This document shows positions 2,937-60,099 of a stretch of 64,000 nt of DNA, piece by piece (the first letter of the stretch is position 1; each line of letters starts with the position of its first letter). Position numbers and translations under genes: made by a program. This stretch comes from Escherichia phage KBNP1711: the sequence record NC_023593.1, one strand, 5' to 3'. The notes under the pieces are model-generated. The model saw nothing but the letters and a program-made list of their open reading frames with translations, was not told the DNA's origin and ran no database searches.

Positions 2937-3155
2937 ATGAAAATGATGAAACAAATCAGTTATGGGTTAGCTTGTGTTGCTACCGGTTTTGCTGTGTCAG
3001 TGGCTGTTCCTGTTAACGCTGTGCATCCTCTGGTAACACAACCTGCACCTGTTGAGAAATTGAGTGCATCATGCAAGCAGCGTACAATTCAAAATAATCT
3101 TGTGGTTATTTGTCCGGACTCTGATTCTAGTGCTCTGAGAAATATGCTTCAGTAA
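2937..3155 (+). CDS. small exported protein (signal peptide, two Cys)
   Basis: MKMMKQISYGLACVATGFAVSVAVPVNA signal-like N-terminus; TAGGAGA 9 nt upstream of ATG 2937. Confidence 0.4.
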   Translation: MKMMKQISYGLACVATGFAVSVAVPVNAVHPLVTQPAPVEKLSASCKQRTIQNNLVVICPDSDSSALRNMLQ

Positions 3156-3185: not shown

Positions 3186-3677
3186 ATGGATAATGTCGCA
3201 TTGCCACCGATACAACTGAGCTTAAGCCCAGAAGGGATGGAATTCATCATGAAGCATGAAGGTATGAGAACTCGTGCTTACCAAGATTCCGCAGGTATCT
3301 GGACGATATGTGTTGGGGCTACGCGCGATATGAATGGGTATCCAGTTAGACAGGGATTAACGTATTCTATAGAGGATTGTCTAGCTCTGCTAGATAGAGA
3401 CACACAAGACTCTGTTCGTGCCACTCAGAAAAATATTAGGGTTCCTTTGTTAACCCACGAGTTTGATGCTCTCACCTCTTTCAACTTCAACGTTGGTGGT
3501 GGAGCTTTATCAACTTCTAAACTTAGGAAAGTTATTAACGGGGATGTGAAGGGTGATGTTTATTCTGAGTTCCTCCGTTGGGATAAAATTACAGTTAAAG
3601 GTAAGAAGATTAGTAGTCCGGGGTTGAAGAATCGTAGAACTGCTGAAGCTGATCTTTACACTGAAGGTAAATACTAA
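3186..3677 (+). CDS. lysozyme (glycoside hydrolase family 24-like muramidase)
   Basis: EGMEFIMKHEGMRTRAYQDSAGIWTICVGAT motif typical of phage GH24 lysozymes; GGGAGGTG RBS. Confidence 0.8.
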   Translation: MDNVALPPIQLSLSPEGMEFIMKHEGMRTRAYQDSAGIWTICVGATRDMNGYPVRQGLTYSIEDCLALLDRDTQDSVRATQKNIRVPLLTHEFDALTSFNFNVGGGALSTSKLRKVINGDVKGDVYSEFLRWDKITVKGKKISSPGLKNRRTAEADLYTEGKY

Positions 3678-8543: not shown

Positions 8544-9578
8544 ATGGCATATGGAATATGGACAAGACCTGTTGGTCCAGGTCCGGCGGCACCTGCTGAC
8601 ATTTACATCGATAGTGGTAGCACGTTTCCTCAACTCAAGAATAGAGTTAGCGGTAACTTTGCATTTAGTGGAAACATATGTGACCTCCCTATAAACGGGT
8701 GGGATGGAAGTGGTCAAATAGTTATTGTCCCGACAGGTTCTGTGGTATGGGAAAGATACATACCGCCTAATGTGACCTCAGACGTATACTGGATAAACAA
8801 TATCTCAGTTATTAATAACTCTACTTTTCGAGTTACTATGGATTATAATGTTAATGGGTGGGTCTTTGATATGGCTTTTAATGTATATCAGATATGGCCT
8901 AGAGCTAATAGAAACTACGGAATTACTTTTTCTAACACAGCTGATTACTTCTCTATTTCTGACTCTGGCACTGTTGGTCAGTGTATCTGGGCTTGGGAAG
9001 GTGATATAAACGGCTCTCTTCAGATACCAGATATTGGAGGTTTTGATATGAGCCGGGCAACTGTTTATGCAAACTGGAGTCACGGAGGGGCTGGGTTGTT
9101 GTATAACCCATCTAACAGAGTTGTTTATGTGTACCAAAACAGATCTCACGATAATAGTAACACAAACCAAACAGGGTCTATTGGTGGTGTTAGGATTGCT
9201 GTTTTCTGCGATGGTTCTGGAGTACCAACTCACAACGGTGGCCTAAATATCTTTTCCCCAAATGGGTCTCAGTGCGTATTCTCTACCTACAGAACCCCTT
9301 TTAGTGTTGAAGGGTTTATGCCTATGAGTGGAGGTAATACATCTCTGGCCTATCCAATGATACCACTGTCTTATGGGGCTGGGGCTATACGAGGAAGTGC
9401 TAGTGGTTGGTACTTTCAACACACAAGATCTCATATGATGAATGGATCTTCTTTTGGGACAGGGTATGGAAGAATGATATACTCTTGGTCAAATCAGTAT
9501 GATCTCGGTGGTGGGGGTGCTCTAGGATTAAGTATTCCGGTATTAGACGCCAAGAAGATTTTTAGAAGCATACAATAA
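8544..9578 (+). CDS. hypothetical virion protein
   Basis: 344-aa ORF tightly coupled to neighbours in the structural operon. Confidence 0.4.
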   Translation: MAYGIWTRPVGPGPAAPADIYIDSGSTFPQLKNRVSGNFAFSGNICDLPINGWDGSGQIVIVPTGSVVWERYIPPNVTSDVYWINNISVINNSTFRVTMDYNVNGWVFDMAFNVYQIWPRANRNYGITFSNTADYFSISDSGTVGQCIWAWEGDINGSLQIPDIGGFDMSRATVYANWSHGGAGLLYNPSNRVVYVYQNRSHDNSNTNQTGSIGGVRIAVFCDGSGVPTHNGGLNIFSPNGSQCVFSTYRTPFSVEGFMPMSGGNTSLAYPMIPLSYGAGAIRGSASGWYFQHTRSHMMNGSSFGTGYGRMIYSWSNQYDLGGGGALGLSIPVLDAKKIFRSIQ

Positions 9579-21380: not shown

Positions 21381-22022
21381 TTAAGACCCTTGGAATTCTT
21401 CTTTGTCGAAGTGCTTCTCTACCACATACTCATACAGATCTTTATACTCTGCATAACGACGGTAGAATGTACCGTGTGAGATGCCTAATTCTTTCTGAAT
21501 GGAATCGTGAGGGATACCTAAGAAGAGCATTGAGAACATGCTTGCGAGCTTCTGTGTGTCCATTGTATCACTCAAATCTTGGAAGAAGTAGAAGATACGA
21601 GATTCCATGAAAGGGTCCCCAACTGAATCATGCTTATTAACTGCATATTCCAGAGGACCTTCTGAGTAAATGTCAGGGTTGTTAAACATATCTGCTTCTG
21701 GAATAGCATAGATACGTCGATCACCAACTGTCTGTCGATTAGAACGGATAGACCAGATGATATTCTTCACACGATAGGTCATGTGCTCAATCTCTACCTC
21801 ACCTTCTAGTAGAAGCTCTTCTTGCTTGGAATAGATGAAACGCCAAGCATTAAGCAACACCTCTTGAGCTACATCCTCTGCTTCATGATAGTCACGAATG
21901 TCGTACATAAAGAATTTGTGAACCACTTTCCAGTTCACCTTATAGAACTCATCGAAGGTTGGGAAGTATTTGATTGGAATACCGTGAATACGATACCGAG
22001 TAGGTGTTGTTTTCTTAGCCAC
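21381..22022 (-). CDS. sigma-70 family (ECF-like) sigma factor-like protein
   Basis: [16 protein letters not shown] resembles sigma region 2; C-terminal HTH-like [15 protein letters not shown]. Confidence 0.55.
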
Positions 22023-22052: not shown

Positions 22053-22262
22053 TTATACGCTGATCAAGTAAATAGCCGTTTCGGGGTTTGGTGTGTGTTG
22101 TTGTGGTGTTCCGAGGATACGAATCCACTCATCGTTTTCTGGTTCGTAATACAACCAAGCATCTGTGAATTTGAAAGTTTTTCCAAACACTTTGTTATCG
22201 TGTTCCCAAATTACGTGAACATTTCGAGTTCCTTGTGGTAGAACTGATTGCGCTCTAATCAT
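22053..22262 (-). CDS. hypothetical protein
   Basis: 69-aa ORF packed between neighbours. Confidence 0.35.
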   Translation of the reverse strand: MIRAQSVLPQGTRNVHVIWEHDNKVFGKTFKFTDAWLYYEPENDEWIRILGTPQQHTPNPETAIYLISV

Positions 22263-22519
22263 TGGATACCTCTTTCTTTCAGAGCCTCTATTAACCCGTT
22301 GTGGTTAGCAGCACACTCTGTGTATTGGTCTTGATACCACTCTAGTGTTGTTGATAGTGCAACACCTTGTGGACCTTCTAGCATCGGTAAATCTACCCTA
22401 CACTCAGCTTTTAGGTTTGTTGGTAAGGGCATTAATTGCCTGCTGTTGTCGCTCATTGAACAACTTGACATACTCATCACTAGCGCAAACATTATAAAAA
22501 ACTGGCTTAGTCTTTTCAT
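22259..22519 (-). CDS. lipoprotein, o-spanin candidate
   Basis: MKRLSQFFIMFALVMSMSSC signal with lipobox-like MSSC followed by Pro-containing segment; starts inside the upstream gene in another frame. Confidence 0.4.
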   Translation of the reverse strand: MKRLSQFFIMFALVMSMSSCSMSDNSRQLMPLPTNLKAECRVDLPMLEGPQGVALSTTLEWYQDQYTECAANHNGLIEALKERGIQ

Positions 22520-22754
22520 AGTGCATCTCTTTGTAAACTGTCTCAGTGTTCTTCTTCCAGTCTGATAGACCATTGAGAACTCTCATAGCAACCTCATCAG
22601 CTGCTTTGTTTCTCTCTATCTCTAATTCTTGCTGATGTTTCTCTTTGTCCAGATTGTTACTATCTGTTTGGTATTCGTTAAACTTCATACCACCAAAGAA
22701 CACAAGAGCTGAAAAGACGATGAACCCTAAGTTATCGCTTAACGTGTTTTGCAT
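22404..22754 (-). CDS. membrane-anchored coiled-coil protein, i-spanin candidate
   Basis: ATG 22754 with GGAGA RBS; one N-terminal TM segment (LGFIVFSALVFFGG) then charged helical region; overlapped by the lipoprotein ORF. Confidence 0.45.
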   Translation of the reverse strand: MQNTLSDNLGFIVFSALVFFGGMKFNEYQTDSNNLDKEKHQQELEIERNKAADEVAMRVLNGLSDWKKNTETVYKEMHYEKTKPVFYNVCASDEYVKLFNERQQQAINALTNKPKS

Positions 22755-22772
22755 ATTATCTCCAACGAAAAA

Positions 22773-22790
22773 AGCCACCCGAAGGTGGCT
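22773..22790 (-). terminator. - strand terminator after SSB gene (agccacc-cgaa-ggtggct)
   Basis: 7-bp stem with T-run on the - strand side. Confidence 0.45.
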
Positions 22791-22812
22791 AAACTATTAC
22801 AAGGAGAGATAC

Positions 22813-23553
22813 TTAGAACGGAGATTCGTCTTCTTCAAAAGTAGACTCAGGCTCACGGTCGATAGTAGGGATAGAAGCAACCGGCTCTTTCTGCTCGTTC
22901 TCAGAAGCCTTAGTGACTTCACGACCAGCGAGAGGAATGTTCTTAGCGTCATTAGCTTGGGTAAGCAGGTTACGCTGGAATGGGAAGATTACCTGGTAAG
23001 CAGCTACGTTATCATCTGTTTCAGCATACGGTTCGAAGAAGACCAAAGGACTGCGAGCAGCAGCAACAGCTTCACGATACTTGGTAGGAATCGGAGTAAT
23101 CTGTTTGATAGAATTCTTAACTTCACCAGCTTTGTTGGTGTAAGAGTTAATCAGAACGTTTACAGGCTGACCTAACAGCATTTCTTTAAACCAAGCTAAA
23201 TCACCTTTCAGTGCTTGGATGCTAGGGTCAACCATCTTAATTAGGTTGAGAATACCAGAGTTCTTAGCTCGTGGGTTTACATCGAAGCTCTTAAATTGAC
23301 ATGCAGGGCGCGGGTCAAGAGCGTTGCCTTCAGAGTCCTTACCGGTTGCATCAACACTAATCAGTTCAAACGCCAAGTCCATACGGAAAGCTGGGTTCTT
23401 AGGAGTAACTGCTTTAGTTTTAGGGTCAACCCAAGGGTCACGATTGTGAACACCAAGACCAACAACACGAACGATACGAGCTTCGTACTCACCATCAGGG
23501 ATTACGTCGTAGTTGGATTTACGGGAAACGGACATAGTTGGGATAGAAGACAT
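22813..23553 (-). CDS. single-stranded DNA-binding protein (T7 gp2.5-like)
   Basis: Acidic C-terminal tail ending EEDESPF; AAGGAA RBS. Confidence 0.6.
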   Translation of the reverse strand: MSSIPTMSVSRKSNYDVIPDGEYEARIVRVVGLGVHNRDPWVDPKTKAVTPKNPAFRMDLAFELISVDATGKDSEGNALDPRPACQFKSFDVNPRAKNSGILNLIKMVDPSIQALKGDLAWFKEMLLGQPVNVLINSYTNKAGEVKNSIKQITPIPTKYREAVAAARSPLVFFEPYAETDDNVAAYQVIFPFQRNLLTQANDAKNIPLAGREVTKASENEQKEPVASIPTIDREPESTFEEDESPF

Positions 23554-23778
23554 ATTTTAATTTCCTTATTTAATTTAAGATTGTTGCTCACTTTGAGCGG
23601 TTATGTATAGTATACATTACACCTATACCGATAAGAGTGCTATGTAGTATAAGCATCAGTGGTAGTAGATATTGACTACTAGTAATGTATATATTGTATA
23701 GATGATAATTCTATTGCAGGCTTGTATATTGGGCAATTCTCAGAATCCCTTGCAAGTACCGAAGGGCAGGAGACACCT

Positions 23779-23843
23779 GCGAGATAAAAATAGAGAATTA
23801 AGGAATCCTTGATTTAGGTTGTGGGGACTCCTAGGGACTTTGA
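23779..23843. repeat. perfect 11-bp inverted repeat AAATAGAGAAT / ATTCTCTATTT around a 43-bp core
   Basis: Read directly in the 414-bp ORF-free region upstream of the SSB gene. Confidence 0.5.
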
Positions 23844-23967
23844 TTCTCTATTTAAAAGATTAATAATTACTTACTACCTAAATAGTTAACTAACTTACTT
23901 AAACCAAATTCAATAATAATAGATAAAAAGATTATTCCTAAGAAAGCTAAGATGTAAAGAACATAAG

Positions 23968-26719: not shown

Positions 26720-27091
26720 TTATTTCTCCAACACCGAGATGCTATATCTATCGTGTAAGGTTTTTCTAACCCAAGCAATGCGTTTAGGGTTTTTGTGATG
26801 AGAGCCTGTGTAACGTTCTCTGTGGTATGTGTCACAACCGAAAGGGTATACCGGGTCCTCAAACCCTTCGTGTTCAAACATATACGTCAGATCATTAAAG
26901 TCCGTATGTTTTGTGAAGAAGTAATAGCTTTTATAACAACGGTAGTTGAAACACAAACCGTGCTCAGGACTGAACCATTTTGGGTATTCGTCTGTCTGAG
27001 AGATGTTATAATACTGGAGGAGGAAATCCTCCATCCCCCTTTCTTTGGCAATACATCTTAGTGTTCGGTAAATAATGTTACTTTGTTTCAT
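26720..27091 (-). CDS. hypothetical protein
   Basis: 123-aa ORF. Confidence 0.4.
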   Translation of the reverse strand: MKQSNIIYRTLRCIAKERGMEDFLLQYYNISQTDEYPKWFSPEHGLCFNYRCYKSYYFFTKHTDFNDLTYMFEHEGFEDPVYPFGCDTYHRERYTGSHHKNPKRIAWVRKTLHDRYSISVLEK

Positions 27092-27100
27092 TGTGAATTC

Positions 27101-27586
27101 TCAATGTGTGTGATTCCAGTTTAATCCTATCTGACAATCAGATGCCAGAGGACATTCCATCTTGAGGTACTCACCAGCTTTCTTAACACAAAGCTCTGTA
27201 AGCTCTTTTAGCTTTTGTGCATCATTACGGTGAACAGAGAACTGCCCTTCATCGTGCATGTCAATAACCTTCGCACAACGAACACCATCACGCTCAATCC
27301 ACTTGTTAAGGAAAAGCATGGCATACTTCATAACAATCGCACCAGCACTCTGTAATAGGGTATTCAGTGCTTTATGAACCATTACCTTACCTGTTGCATC
27401 ACGTCTCATTGTAACACGACGACCATCAACACCCAAGATATAACCTTGAGCTGCCTTCTCTGTCATACGTTCAATAAGAATTGCAATACAAGGATTCTCT
27501 GCCAAGAAACGTGCTCTCATTACTGCACCTTCTTCAGAGCCTCCACCAACGATAGAACCGAGCTTAGCATCACCTGCCCCATCAAT
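27101..27586 (-). CDS. DNA polymerase (family A, T7 gp5-like), exon 2 / C-terminal part
   Basis: Reading frame open upstream of the track Met gives ...IDGAGDAKLGSIVGGG... then HKALNTLLQSAGAIV and HDEGQF (motif C), colinear with T7 DNA polymerase after motif B; 5' boundary approximate. Confidence 0.65.
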   Translation of the reverse strand: MDGAGDAKLGSIVGGGSEEGAVMRARFLAENPCIAILIERMTEKAAQGYILGVDGRRVTMRRDATGKVMVHKALNTLLQSAGAIVMKYAMLFLNKWIERDGVRCAKVIDMHDEGQFSVHRNDAQKLKELTELCVKKAGEYLKMECPLASDCQIGLNWNHTH

Positions 27587-28367
27587 AGTTCAAGCAAAGG
27601 CGCTACTCTTTGCTCCGTTCTCTTATGAACTGCTTACAGTTTCCTGTAAGATCGGACTATATCTTCATCTCCACCTTTACGTGCTGAGAGACAGGCGCTT
27701 CCGTAACACTTGTTACGTACTCCCTTCCGGGATAGTCTCTGAACTTTCCGTGACACAAACTTTTCTACATAGATCAATGAACTGAGCATCAGATAGTTTA
27801 CCTTTTGCATTATTCACTTCCCAAGTTACCCATTGGACATTTCCAATTTCGTAACCTTTCGAATTATCCTTCCTATCTAAAGAAAGTTTATTCGGATGTC
27901 CGCTGACGAAAGATAGTGAATCTCCTGTCAAGGCACATTTGTAGTTTTGCTGAGAAAGAAGCTCGAATAAATAGTCTTGAGTAATCGTGAACTCAAAACC
28001 CCTTTCTCTAGCTCTGTGATGGGAGTTGTGATATCTCTCACGAACCGCTCCACCCCAAGTTTGTCGATATTGTCCCATAGCAGCAGATGCTGCACTTCTG
28101 TTTCGACGTCTCCACTCATTTGAAGCAATGAGAGCACAATTTTTTACATTGACATTGCTTTCCATCTTTACTCTTAGATGAATTATGGAAACTGTCGAGT
28201 GGCTTTTCTTCGCCACAGCTTGAACATATCTTTGTCATAAACACCTCCTTGTGTTGATGTTTATGTCACGGCTTAGCTGCTGATTGGCATATCTTTCGAC
28301 TTAGCTTTCCAGCAATTCACCTGTTTTGCTTCTGCACATTTCTATGCAGTGAACCAATTATTTAGTT
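27587..28367 (-). mobile_element. intron (group I-like) carrying an HNH homing endonuclease ORF, inserted at polymerase motif B
   Basis: Polymerase frame broken by stops between ...RDNAKTFIYAF and IDGAGDAKLG...; intervening ~780 nt has its own RBS and endonuclease ORF; boundaries +/- about 10 nt. Confidence 0.55.
27713..28238 (-). CDS. intron-encoded HNH homing endonuclease with apparent frameshift
   Basis: ATG 28238 with AAGGAGGTG RBS encodes MTKICSSCGEEKPLDSFHNSSKSKDGKQCQCKK then stops; HNH domain (HNSHHRARERGFEF...DRKDNSKGYEIGNVQWVTWEVNNAK) continues in another frame after an A6 run near 28140. Confidence 0.6.
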
Positions 28368-29729
28368 AAAGGCATATATAAATGTCTTCGCATTGTCACG
28401 AGTAGGAAGACCAGCAAGTCTCTGATTATGAGAATGGATATCACCTTCTAACAGAATATCACGATACATAACAGCAGAAGCTAAACCACGTTCAGCTAAT
28501 GCTTTCTTACCAGCGTTACCTTCTGCAATTGCTTCAGCAAGCATGTCTCTACACTCTTTAATGAGGTAGTGAGCAAGCATACGAAGCTCTAATCCAGAAC
28601 CATCATAACCTAGGAAGAGTTCTCTACCAGCTGGTACATAATACTTATATAACCCTACTGGTTTGTCTTTCTTTCCGGGTTTTCCACGTTCGTAGATAAC
28701 GTTTGTATTTTTTCGTAAGTAACACCCATCAGGGATATTGTTGGTAATGATGAAAGGATAGTTATGACTATCATCTGTGGAGTAGTTAGATTGAAATAAA
28801 CTCCTACACTCGTGACCAAACAGACCGCGAGAAGGAATATTAACAACAATGCGATGTTTAAAACGAAATGTCGGAGTAGCGCAGCTATTAGCTTCCGCTG
28901 AGAGTTTACCATCTGGACGTTCCTTATCAATCAGTCCATTAATCAAGCCTAGTCTGTGAGCCGCTACAACACGTCTCTTAAGCAGACTTCCCACCTTACC
29001 TAGATCACCCTCAAGACCTTCTTCAAGAGTCTCTTCGAGGTTTGTAGGAGCTGTGGGCCACTTGTTCGAAGTAGCTAATGCTCTCTTAATTTCATCAAAG
29101 GTTACAGGTTTCTTCCTGTTAGGGTTTAAACCTAAACCAAAGACATAAGCCTTCATGTAGTTGACAGTTTTGTGACGAAAGTGCTTATCCAAGAATTTCT
29201 TGATATCAGCATCAACCATCTGAGCTGTCTGTCGCTCTTTCTCATTGCCACGCATCCAAGAGTTGTACCATTCTTGATACGTTCCACACTTACGCAAGGC
29301 TCGCTTAATCTCAAATGTGTTCCAAGGCTTCTTAGATGTATTAAATTCTGGAGGAAGAAAACCTTCATCCATCAGTGCTTCTTTAACTCGTGCATCCTTT
29401 GATGGGTCAAAGTCAACATACTCAACACAAGTAAAAGCTCCACCGATATCTTCCCTCTTTAACCCCACTCTGTCACAATATAATTGAGGCCACTTCTGAA
29501 GAGCACCAGTCTTCTTAAAGGGTTTCATGTAAGTAGAACCATCAACCCTCATCTTAGGTAACAGAGGAATCAGCTCTCTGTCGATGTTAACGATAATCTC
29601 TCTGAGAAGGTGAACATACCACCGTGCATTCCTCCGATTAAAGTTGACACCACTCTTCGCTTGCTTTGAAATTATATCAGCGACAGTCATCTCCGTTAAG
29701 AACGGAAGTACATCAGGGTTCTCCATCAC
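28368..29729 (-). CDS. DNA polymerase (family A, T7 gp5-like), exon 1: polymerase domain through motif B
   Basis: GYDGSGLELRMLAHY (motif A) and LPTRDNAKTFIYAF (motif B/O-helix) align with T7 gp5 GIDASGLELRCLAHF / LPTRDNAKTFIYGF. Confidence 0.7.
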
Positions 29730-33859: not shown

Positions 33860-34049
33860 TCTATTCCTTGTTAATAAACAGGTTGATATGATGCTGGGTA
33901 GCAGGAACAACAATAAAAGATTTATACTGACCTTTTGCTAAGTCATGAGCAATCTTCTTTGTCTGACCAAGACCCATCACACAGCCGCTAACGATAATGG
34001 CATGTGCTTGTAATTCTTCAGGTAGGTTTAGTTTCACTCTTTGGATTCC

Positions 34050-45385: not shown

Positions 45386-46486
45386 TTACAGCAGTCGTTC
45401 TAACTGAATTTCCAAGTGGTCTGGAATATACTCAGTGACGTTGTTATCAGAGACGCCAGATTCACGCATCATGTTGAGCATGTTACGAATCTGCCCTTCT
45501 GTTGCTTCACGAGTTTCACTAATCTCTGTTTCATACAGAGCCATGATCTCGTTATGAACATCTTGAGCATTACCACGGACATATCCGAGGAAGCCATAGA
45601 AGTCAGACATATCACGAAGGGATACAACTACCGACCCACTACTATCAAGAGTTTGTAAACGAATACGCCCAACCTGACGCACAGATCGGTTACGACAGAA
45701 CAGGATATCACGAGCCAGACGATAACCGCTATCAAGATCTTCGTGTCTTGGGGTGTAGTCCAGAGGTAGGTGCGGGAGCATAGGGTCAAAACGAACCCTG
45801 TTGAGCATCTCAACAAACTCTTCATTGTCCATCTCTGCATTTTCAACTGCTAATTTCTTAAGAACCAAGAAGCGGTTTACCAGATTTAACAGCTGACCTT
45901 TCTTCCACTTAGGCTCTGAGATACGGAACTCAACAGAACCGAACTGAGCCAGAGGGAGTAGGTTGAGTGATGTGTACTTATCCCAACGGTCGACGATATG
46001 TCGGAAGAAGTTCTCACCTTCGTAGTTAAATGCTTCAGAAGCGTTCATTACTTGAGCCTGAACCACTGCAAAAGCAGGACAGAAATTACTACGGTAACGG
46101 TGATAACCAGAGCACTTAAACATCAATGCTTCATAGAAAGTCCACCCAAGGATAACTTTCTTAACGATATTGCTATCAGCATCTCGCATATCCATATGAA
46201 CGTGAGTGGAACATCGCCAAGTCCCTTCTGCTTCGGACTCCATCACTGCCTCACTCAGATTGTTGATAGCGTCAAACAGTTCTACACCATTGTAAGGGCG
46301 AGAACAGACCATTTCACATCCGTTGCGAAGCGAGCCATCCTCTGTACATTCCCACATATCTGCTTCGATATGATCGTCACCTTCAAGCTCCAGCTCAATA
46401 CCAATACCGCATTGGAATGCGATACTCGGATGTGCTTCACTCAGACGATTACTACGGTATCCAAAAGCTTGCGCTACAGTTGTCAT
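45386..46486 (-). CDS. glutamine synthetase-like amidoligase (carboxylate-amine ligase) candidate
   Basis: IGIELELEG near N-terminus and CSTHVHMD resemble the Glu-x-Glu and His-x-His metal motifs of GCS2/amidoligase enzymes. Confidence 0.45.
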   Translation of the reverse strand: MTTVAQAFGYRSNRLSEAHPSIAFQCGIGIELELEGDDHIEADMWECTEDGSLRNGCEMVCSRPYNGVELFDAINNLSEAVMESEAEGTWRCSTHVHMDMRDADSNIVKKVILGWTFYEALMFKCSGYHRYRSNFCPAFAVVQAQVMNASEAFNYEGENFFRHIVDRWDKYTSLNLLPLAQFGSVEFRISEPKWKKGQLLNLVNRFLVLKKLAVENAEMDNEEFVEMLNRVRFDPMLPHLPLDYTPRHEDLDSGYRLARDILFCRNRSVRQVGRIRLQTLDSSGSVVVSLRDMSDFYGFLGYVRGNAQDVHNEIMALYETEISETREATEGQIRNMLNMMRESGVSDNNVTEYIPDHLEIQLERLL

Positions 46487-59199: not shown

Positions 59200-60099
59200 T
59201 TATGCTGCGTTACGTGCTGCCATGATCTCAGCTGCCTTGCGCAATACTTCTTCTTCCTCAGCTTTTGCAGCTTGTTCGGTACGGATTGCTACCGTTGAAG
59301 AGATACGACCGCGCAGGCTTTCTAACTTCTCCTGCATTTTGGCAATGGTGGATTCCATTTCATCGGCATACGAATCCAGTGATTCCAGTTCCTTGCTTGA
59401 TGCGTTCATCAGATAATCATCAGAGATCGCTACCGTTGAAGCCGTGACTTTCTTGATGAGTGAGTCAAAGGACTTCTTAACCTTGCCTACTTCTTCACTC
59501 AGGGCAATAGTATTATCACTGGTAGCGCCGTTACGCTCATCAGCCAACAATTTTGCTTCAATACGGATTGCATTTAAGCGTTCAACCAAAGCGTAAATAT
59601 CTTGGTTAAAATCTTCCTTGTTTTTCGCCGGGATTTGCAGGTGTGCCGCCACGTTGTCATTGCAACCCTTGTAAAAGTTAGGGTTATCTACTTCAATTTC
59701 ACGACCTAACGCAAAGTTTTCGAAAGCGTTCGACCAGCGAGCGCGATTCTGTTCCATTTTGGCCTTAATTTGCGCTTCTTTCGCATCTTCTTTCGCTTTC
59801 GCTTCACCTTCCAGATTAATCCACTTTTTACGACCGTTTGCCGCATCGGTGTTAAACTTGACAGGAGTCAGGAAAGTGATTGCAGTGGCGATCACATCCA
59901 TATCACGAAAACGCTCGGTTAACAGAAAATCGACCGCCGCCTGCAATACGTCTAACTTTTTACCGTTGCTGCGGAAGTGCTGCAAATGACCTAACAGAAA
60001 ATTAGAAACATCTTGCTTAATCGCCGCGTTATTGCTACGAATGTTGTTAGCCAGTGCGTTAAAACCAGACTCTTTTACCAGATTAAAAATTTTAGCCAT
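59200..60099 (-). CDS. hypothetical protein (300 aa, helical, Ala/Lys/Glu-rich)
   Basis: ATG 60099 with AAAGGTG upstream; track start 60108 is GTG; first gene downstream of the ORF-free region. Confidence 0.5.
   Translation of the reverse strand: MAKIFNLVKESGFNALANNIRSNNAAIKQDVSNFLLGHLQHFRSNGKKLDVLQAAVDFLLTERFRDMDVIATAITFLTPVKFNTDAANGRKKWINLEGEAKAKEDAKEAQIKAKMEQNRARWSNAFENFALGREIEVDNPNFYKGCNDNVAAHLQIPAKNKEDFNQDIYALVERLNAIRIEAKLLADERNGATSDNTIALSEEVGKVKKSFDSLIKKVTASTVAISDDYLMNASSKELESLDSYADEMESTIAKMQEKLESLRGRISSTVAIRTEQAAKAEEEEVLRKAAEIMAARNAA

Follow-up and report, generated by a model that had tools for sequence, protein, structure and literature searches.

Does Escherichia phage KBNP1711 (NC_023593.1) encode a spanin pair in a part of its genome remote from its other lysis genes? 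We addressed this question for a 64,000-nucleotide (nt) stretch of that record, here called the window, in which an initial annotation had proposed two overlapping open reading frames (ORFs), at 22404-22754 and 22259-22519, as an inner-membrane spanin (i-spanin) together with a lipoprotein spanin of the outer membrane (o-spanin). Both coordinates were right, and both ORFs lie on the minus strand (Table 1). We concluded that the locus is very probably a two-component spanin of overlapped architecture. The structure of the genes, their targeting signals, their homology and the selection acting on each frame could be observed directly. The spanin interpretation was further supported by the catalogue of Kongari et al. 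2018 (PMC6139136), where exactly these proteins already appear as an overlapped i-/o-spanin pair.

A membrane protein and a predicted lipoprotein in overlapping frames

The start codon of the o-spanin gene falls within the i-spanin gene, 235 nt from its beginning and in the +1 frame, and the o-spanin gene ends 145 nt beyond the i-spanin stop. This is the overlapped architecture, as initially described, and the relatives are arranged alike. The o-spanin stop and the start codon of the small ORF that follows overlap in turn, within ATGA at 22259-22262. That ORF encodes 69 amino acids (aa) at 22053-22262 on the minus strand (phrog_30479), and the same small gene is annotated in phage Bas89.

The product of the first gene carries the single N-terminal transmembrane (TM) helix that had been claimed for it. 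The Kyte-Doolittle maximum of the protein is the segment LGFIVFSALVFFGGM, with a 15-residue mean of 2.23, and no second hydrophobic segment was found in it. In the homologue of phage Paul, TMpred places the TM domain (TMD) at residues 8-23. The flanks of the KBNP1711 helix carry charges of -1 on the N side and -2 on the C side, and the 93 residues outside it are 33% charged. An AlphaFold2 (AF2) model of low confidence (pLDDT 63) has helices at residues 3-79 and 93-111, joined by a loop at residues 80-92. At that confidence, the predicted order of TMD-bearing helix, loop and helix would be the canonical layout expected of i-spanins. The initial annotation had also described this region as a charged coiled coil. 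The coiled coil found partial support: the region is charged and modelled as helical, and the supplement of Kongari et al. lists the identical sequence as 63% helix and leaves its coiled-coil entry without a call. Coiled-coil calls are recorded there for the close relatives NJ01 and KBNP135, and in the best register 56% of the a/d positions of the KBNP1711 protein are hydrophobic, compared with 32% overall. Cys90, invariant among the relatives aligned, sits in the conserved loop KPVFYNVCASD. The Shine-Dalgarno (SD) string GGAG upstream of the gene is the same as that given for KBNP1711 in Table S1 of Kongari et al. An alternative GTG start at 22778, present in the ORF list, would lengthen the gene; we rejected it as unlikely because it lies within a terminator hairpin.

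The second ORF had been credited with a lipoprotein signal containing a lipobox-like MSSC. Its product begins MKRLSQFFIMFALVMSMSS/CSMSD (lipobox SMSS/C, Cys20 codon at 22460-22462) and passes the PROSITE PS51257 lipoprotein rule, with K/R within the first 7 residues. LipoP predicts a signal peptidase II (SpII) site at 19/20 in the Paul homologue, with a score of 18, and the curators of the Kongari catalogue note a LipoP hit for the identical KBNP1711 o-spanin. In KBNP1711 and every relative examined, Ser and not the Lol-avoidance Asp occupies position +2. The short proline-containing segment reported after the lipobox proved to be MPLPT, with two prolines; the mature part contains 4 Pro in 67 residues (6%), and the protein is predicted to be ~46% helical. 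Its periplasmic Cys40 and Cys69 are conserved in most relatives. Judged from the sequences, these two residues and Cys90 of the i-spanin would be periplasmic cysteines available for putative intermolecular disulfides.

The lipobox match was not used as evidence in its own right. Four start sites in the whole window pass the lipoprotein rule, compared with 2.9 +/- 2.5 in shuffled sequence, so that the match by itself is within chance and not significant. The significance of the pair comes instead from its homology (PHROG 1152) and from the conservation of both frames. The other three passing sites, at 59222-59416 (plus), 33861-34037 (minus) and 45628-45789 (minus), pass the rule probably by chance, since their hydrophobic regions are weak or carry charges. 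No credible ORF with a lipoprotein signal was found in the window besides the o-spanin, and there is therefore no rival spanin near the endolysin gene.

Table 1. Features of the spanin locus and of related or neighbouring elements. Positions are those of the window unless a phage or locus is named.
Feature	Position	Strand	Details and basis
i-spanin gene	22754->22404	minus	116 aa; ATG start; ORF and translation
i-spanin SD, GGAG	22760..22763	minus	5 nt before the ATG; read from the sequence; graded strong
i-spanin TM helix coding region, LGFIVFSALVFFGGM	22686..22730	minus	residues 9-23; Kyte-Doolittle
o-spanin gene	22519->22259	minus	86-aa precursor, 67-aa mature lipoprotein; ATG start; ORF, +1 frame relative to i-spanin
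o-spanin signal peptide and lipobox, MKRLSQFFIMFALVMSMSS/C	22460..22519	minus	PROSITE PS51257
Dual-coding overlap, 116 nt	22404..22519	minus	i-spanin residues 79-116 and stop; o-spanin residues 1-39
57-aa truncated o-spanin call	22259-22432	minus	also L010 1588-1761; Bas89 L001 20953-21126
Terminator hairpin AGCCACC-UUCG-GGUGGCU + U6	22767..22790	minus	intrinsic; between SSB-like gene and i-spanin; terminator scan
SSB-like gene	22813-23553		upstream of i-spanin
TAATGTATA, exact motif	23611..23619	minus	phiEco32 gp36-sigma middle/late promoter type; 57 nt upstream of SSB-like gene
Holin gene	2937..3155	plus	phrog_11161 holin, E=1.6e-46; annotated holin in Bas89
Endolysin gene	3186..3677	plus	phrog_7 endolysin, E=7.7e-45; annotated endolysin in Bas89
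Endonuclease-split spanin pair	SU7 L009 718-1755; EK010 L015 655-1692		architecture now 'separated'

Homology, conservation and selection

The i-spanin matches the profile PHROG 1152, 'Rz-like spanin', with E=7.3e-38, while the o-spanin matches phrog_2425 (E=6e-25) and, weakly, phrog_456, 'Rz-like spanin'. Table S1 of PMC6139136 lists KBNP1711 ECBP3_0035 (i) and ECBP3_0034 (o), whose proteins are 100% identical to those described here; the 24-nt upstream strings of both genes are identical as well, and the 116-nt overlap and the minus strand agree. Because of the PHROG 1152 match (E=7e-38) and these identical entries, the pair belongs to a curated spanin family. The catalogue classes phiEco32, NJ01, ECBP2 and KBNP1711 as having overlapped ('ovl') two-component spanins, with the i-spanin in family 'JH2', which is common to Felix O1-type phages, and the o-spanin in family 'NJ01', which has four members. 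The Center for Phage Technology record of phage Paul, from which the TMpred and LipoP results were taken, annotates the same pair, and several other records label the genes 'Rz-like spanin' and 'o-spanin'; the genome announcement of Paul leaves its lysis genes unmentioned. The spanin assignment, the sequences and the biology have been on record since the 2018 catalogue, and nothing in the locus is new.

By its sequence the phage is a phiEco32-like podophage of the Gordonclarkvirinae, Kuravirus. Over 3 kb its nucleotide identity is 96.8% to EP335, 96.1% to Bas89 and ~83% to about 90 more coliphages. In phiEco32 (gp39/gp38), Paul (gp036/gp035), NJ01 and ECBP2 the spanin genes occupy the same site, between a gp40-like (SSB-like) gene and the sigma factor region, and differ from those of KBNP1711 neither in length (116 and 86 aa) nor in their overlap; all four phages are Kuravirus. 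The i-spanins of phiEco32, Paul and NJ01 are 91-95% identical to that of KBNP1711 and their o-spanins 81-85%, with lower values of 79% and 76% in ECBP2. These four phages have the lipobox SMSAC where KBNP1711 has SMSSC. In phiEco32 and Paul the o-spanin gene is immediately followed by a macro-domain (Appr-1-p processing) gene, which KBNP1711 lacks and in whose place it has the 69-aa ORF.

A tblastn search with the o-spanin matched 117 phage records, 101 of which covered at least 80% of the 86 aa. Comparison of the locus in related phages, which the initial annotation had called for, found the second frame and its lipobox kept in every relative examined, down to 35-40% identity (Felix O1-like, P2-like and Proteus phages), and the two genes co-occurred in all of them. 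Neither result named beforehand as contradicting the spanin reading, a missing lipobox or TM segment or an embedded frame lost in relatives, was obtained. Overlapped homologues that retain TMD and lipobox are present in an 88-kb IMG/VR contig, the Flyfo podovirus Tbat2_2, the P2-like Salmonella phage SI7, a Proteus phage and the Felix O1-like Pectobacterium phage Arno18. SI7 has the gene order holin, M15 peptidase, i-spanin homologue and an unannotated o-spanin homologue, and in Tbat2_2 the pair comes after a putative holin and two small genes. This holin/endolysin neighbourhood is an independent link between the family and lysis. In the classification of Kongari et al., Felix O1-type i-spanins share family JH2 with KBNP1711, with an identity of merely ~25-35%; the o-spanins of the Felix O1 and phiEco32 types are separate families there, although the Arno18 o-spanin is detectably homologous. 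In Arno18, which belongs to the Ounavirinae, both homologues are overlapped and the o-spanin lacks the first periplasmic Cys. The Arno18 o-spanin (L014 2131-2638) is 35% identical to that of KBNP1711, with E=6e-4 in a search of the whole phage collection and 1.5e-12 among the loci.

Selection on the two frames was assessed by codon-position analysis of an alignment of seven Kuravirus-level sequences. Variable sites in the i-only part favour third positions of the i frame (20/14/44, p=6e-5), and those in the o-only part favour the third positions of o-frame codons (19/5/35, p=1e-5). Variability is lower in the shared 116 nt than in the single-coding parts (0.216 vs 0.33-0.41, Fisher p=0.003). 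The codon-position pattern and the lower variability of the overlap together indicate that both genes are under purifying selection.

Most public records and protein databases contain only a 57-aa fragment of the o-spanin without its signal peptide. The truncation starts at MPLPT and is found as phiEco32 gp38, as Bas89_0031, as the 'o-spanin' of EK5 and in database clusters P0002-P0005. A search of a 5.8-billion protein set with the o-spanin returned five clusters, and four of the five are 57-aa truncated calls. We attribute these calls to the bias of gene callers against overlapping genes that is described by Kongari et al. (PMC6139136).

In the Suseptimavirus phages SU7 and EK010 the pair has been split by an HNH/AP2-type endonuclease gene inserted exactly in the i/o-spanin overlap. 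The i-spanin is intact after the insertion, with a new short C-terminal tail. The mature part of the o-spanin has been retained, whereas its signal peptide and lipobox (LMAC/S, LSAC/S) are new, not homologous to the old ones and encoded over the 3' end of the inserted endonuclease gene, and in SU7 a decayed remnant of the old signal-peptide frame is left at L009 950-1003. The dual-coding overlap is a landing site for homing-endonuclease genes in relatives, and the insertion has a parallel in the T5/Shivani case that Kongari et al. 2018 (PMC6139136) describe.

Counter-evidence and alternative explanations

Several observations count against the assignment as a spanin pair. The genes lie apart from holin and endolysin, amid middle genes for replication and transcription. 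The net charge of -1 on the N flank of the TM helix means that, as far as the sequence indicates, the positive-inside rule does not strongly dictate an N-in topology. The AF2 model of the i-spanin has low confidence, and the coiled-coil predictor used by Kongari et al. gave no call for this exact sequence. The M-S-S-C lipobox is the least canonical of its family, and the mature o-spanin, with merely 6% Pro and partly helical, is unlike lambda Rz1. No Pfam model scored above threshold for either protein. We also found no experimental paper on this spanin family, whose function is assigned from signals, homology and context.

With these points in mind we weighed three other explanations. It could be argued that only the 116-aa membrane protein is real and that the second frame and its lipobox arose by chance, since lipobox-rule matches occur near chance frequency (4 vs 2.9 expected) and most gene callers report the 57-aa truncation in place of the full 86-aa ORF. 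The third-position variation of the o-only part in the o frame (19/5/35, p=1e-5), the persistence of the full ORF with signal peptide and lipobox down to 35% identity and the tblastn matches that span at least 80% of its length in 101 of the 117 phage records all contradict this explanation, as does the o gene that retained its mature part and gained a new signal peptide after the endonuclease insertion. On the sequences compared, conservation has already refuted a chance frame, and we give it practically no weight. Just as little credit is due to the idea that the lipoprotein alone is a unimolecular spanin and that the upstream membrane protein is unrelated to it. Nothing specific favours this idea, which we considered since unimolecular spanins (u-spanins) likewise open with a lipoprotein signal. 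The o-protein has no hydrophobic segment beyond its signal peptide, and hence no C-terminal TMD of the kind that defines the T1 gp11 type, and both genes are found together in every relative examined.

The explanation that deserves more attention, though we consider it improbable, is that the pair forms some other envelope system expressed with the middle genes, for example a lipoprotein that excludes superinfection or blocks a receptor, as T5 Llp or Cor does, and that has a membrane partner. The position of the pair would suit such a role: it lies amid middle genes, near the SSB-like and sigma factor genes, and is ~18.6 kb from holin and endolysin on the opposite strand. Against it stand the match of the i-protein to the Rz-like spanin PHROG (7e-38), the distant homologues of both proteins directly after holin/endolysin genes in SI7 and Tbat2_2, and the fact that overlapped pairs of a TMD protein and a lipoprotein are a spanin hallmark (PMC6139136). 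The genome, moreover, has a holin and an endolysin yet contains no other spanin candidate. We therefore retained the overlapped two-component spanin as the explanation of the locus.

Genomic setting and proposed function

The initial annotation had found no endolysin or holin next to the pair, and we located both among the tail genes, on the other strand and about 18.6 kb away. Linkage to these genes, a common but non-defining trait of spanins, is lacking in this genome. The implied novelty of that placement did not hold up: the placement itself is true, but spanin genes unlinked from other lysis genes are a known arrangement. In the gene order of T4, the spanin genes PseT.3 and PseT.2 lie apart from the endolysin and holin genes. 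The T4 pair has a 'separated' architecture (Fig. 1b, PMC6139136) and is unrelated in sequence to that of KBNP1711. P2 LysB/LysC, the prototype of overlapped pairs, and lambda Rz/Rz1, the prototype of embedded ones, each consist, as is predicted for the KBNP1711 pair, of a type II inner-membrane protein and an outer-membrane lipoprotein, with the lipoprotein in the +1 frame of the 3' part of the i-spanin gene and with periplasmic cysteines (PMC6139136). No sequence similarity to the P2 and lambda spanins was detected beyond PHROG-level grouping. Lambda Rz/Rz1 is fully embedded, lies in the lysis cassette and has a proline-rich Rz1, whereas the KBNP1711 o-spanin has 6% Pro.

The paper on phage SU10 assigns this minus-strand block to the middle genes, by homology with phiEco32. 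Some few hundred bases separate the pair from a phage sigma factor gene (21381-22022) on its downstream side, and the gene upstream of the pair had been named as encoding a single-stranded DNA-binding protein (SSB). The product of that gene has no sequence match in Pfam or PDB. Its predicted fold is confident (pLDDT 82.5), with a beta-rich core, and its disordered acidic tail ends in an invariant Pro-Phe. On the basis of the model, an OB fold followed by an acidic tail with PF at its end makes SSB a plausible, not a proven, identity, and we refer to the gene as SSB-like.

The intrinsic terminator hairpin between the SSB-like gene and the i-spanin lies in a region with a folding energy of -18.6 kcal/mol (z=-3.7). 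It is kept in Kuravirus and Suseptimavirus relatives and is annotated as a terminator in phage Paul. The nearest candidate promoter upstream of the spanin genes that we could infer is the TAATGTATA copy at 23611-23619, a motif described in PMC4281155 and PMC12276001. Exact matches to it number 6 in the window, compared with 0.84 expected. Since the pair lies downstream of this motif and of the conserved terminator, the sequence suggests that the spanins would be made from read-through transcripts of a middle-gene cluster dependent on the gp36 sigma factor. A sigma-70 promoter-like match inside the overlap (22519-22491) was disregarded, the total of that scan being at chance level (12 found vs 9.2 expected).

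Within 22755-22812 (minus), a CUCUCC upstream of the hairpin pairs with the i-spanin GGAG in the minimum-energy fold. On this model the pairing might serve as an anti-SD element. Since neither arm varies among relatives, covariation cannot support the pairing, and the minimum-energy folds vary between phages.

The 310-nt intergenic region 23554-23866 holds two copies of TAATGTATA facing apart, at 23611-23619 (minus) and 23683-23691 (plus), with near-matches at 23601 and 23692. The remaining exact copies are at 8879, 14116, 31068 and 61780. Many HNH endonuclease genes are dispersed through the replication module. In Bas89, the DNA polymerase I gene (L001 25681-28305) is joined from two pieces and has an endonuclease gene inside it (L001 26293-26817), which suggests an intron-type interruption; with a constant offset of ~+1300, this region would correspond approximately to 27000-29600 of the window.

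For the function of the pair we followed the steps of lambda Rz/Rz1 as summarised in PMC6139136, and by analogy with that paradigm we propose the following topology, lipidation, complex formation and outer-membrane step. The 116-aa product would use its N-terminal helix as an inner-membrane anchor (N-in, C-out), with a mostly helical domain in the periplasm. The 86-aa product would be exported, lipidated at Cys20 and cut by signal peptidase II. Since it has Ser in place of Asp at residue +2, the Lol system would be expected to deliver it to the outer membrane, on the inner leaflet. The periplasmic domains of the two proteins would then bind each other, and the resulting complex would pass through the peptidoglycan mesh and bridge the periplasm. 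Destruction of the peptidoglycan by the unlinked holin and endolysin would free the spanin complexes to act, and these would disrupt the outer membrane, probably by fusion with the inner membrane, so that progeny are released.

The setting also raises the possibility, which we put forward tentatively and regard as somewhat doubtful, that the spanins are timed and dosed apart from holin and endolysin. Transcription would begin in the middle period at the gp36-type motif 23611-23619 and would reach the spanin genes solely by read-through of the terminator at 22767-22790, and the conserved CUCUCC pairing with the i-spanin SD might further damp translation. A few spanin complexes, a small early load, would thereby reach the envelope long before holin and endolysin, which come late.

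With the pair read as an overlapped two-component spanin, this phiEco32-like phage has its full set of lysis genes (holin, endolysin, spanin). The value of the finding lies chiefly in annotation quality, as automatic callers clip overlapped o-spanin genes. In phage-therapy engineering or in the mining of lysis proteins, the start of the 86-aa form should be used.
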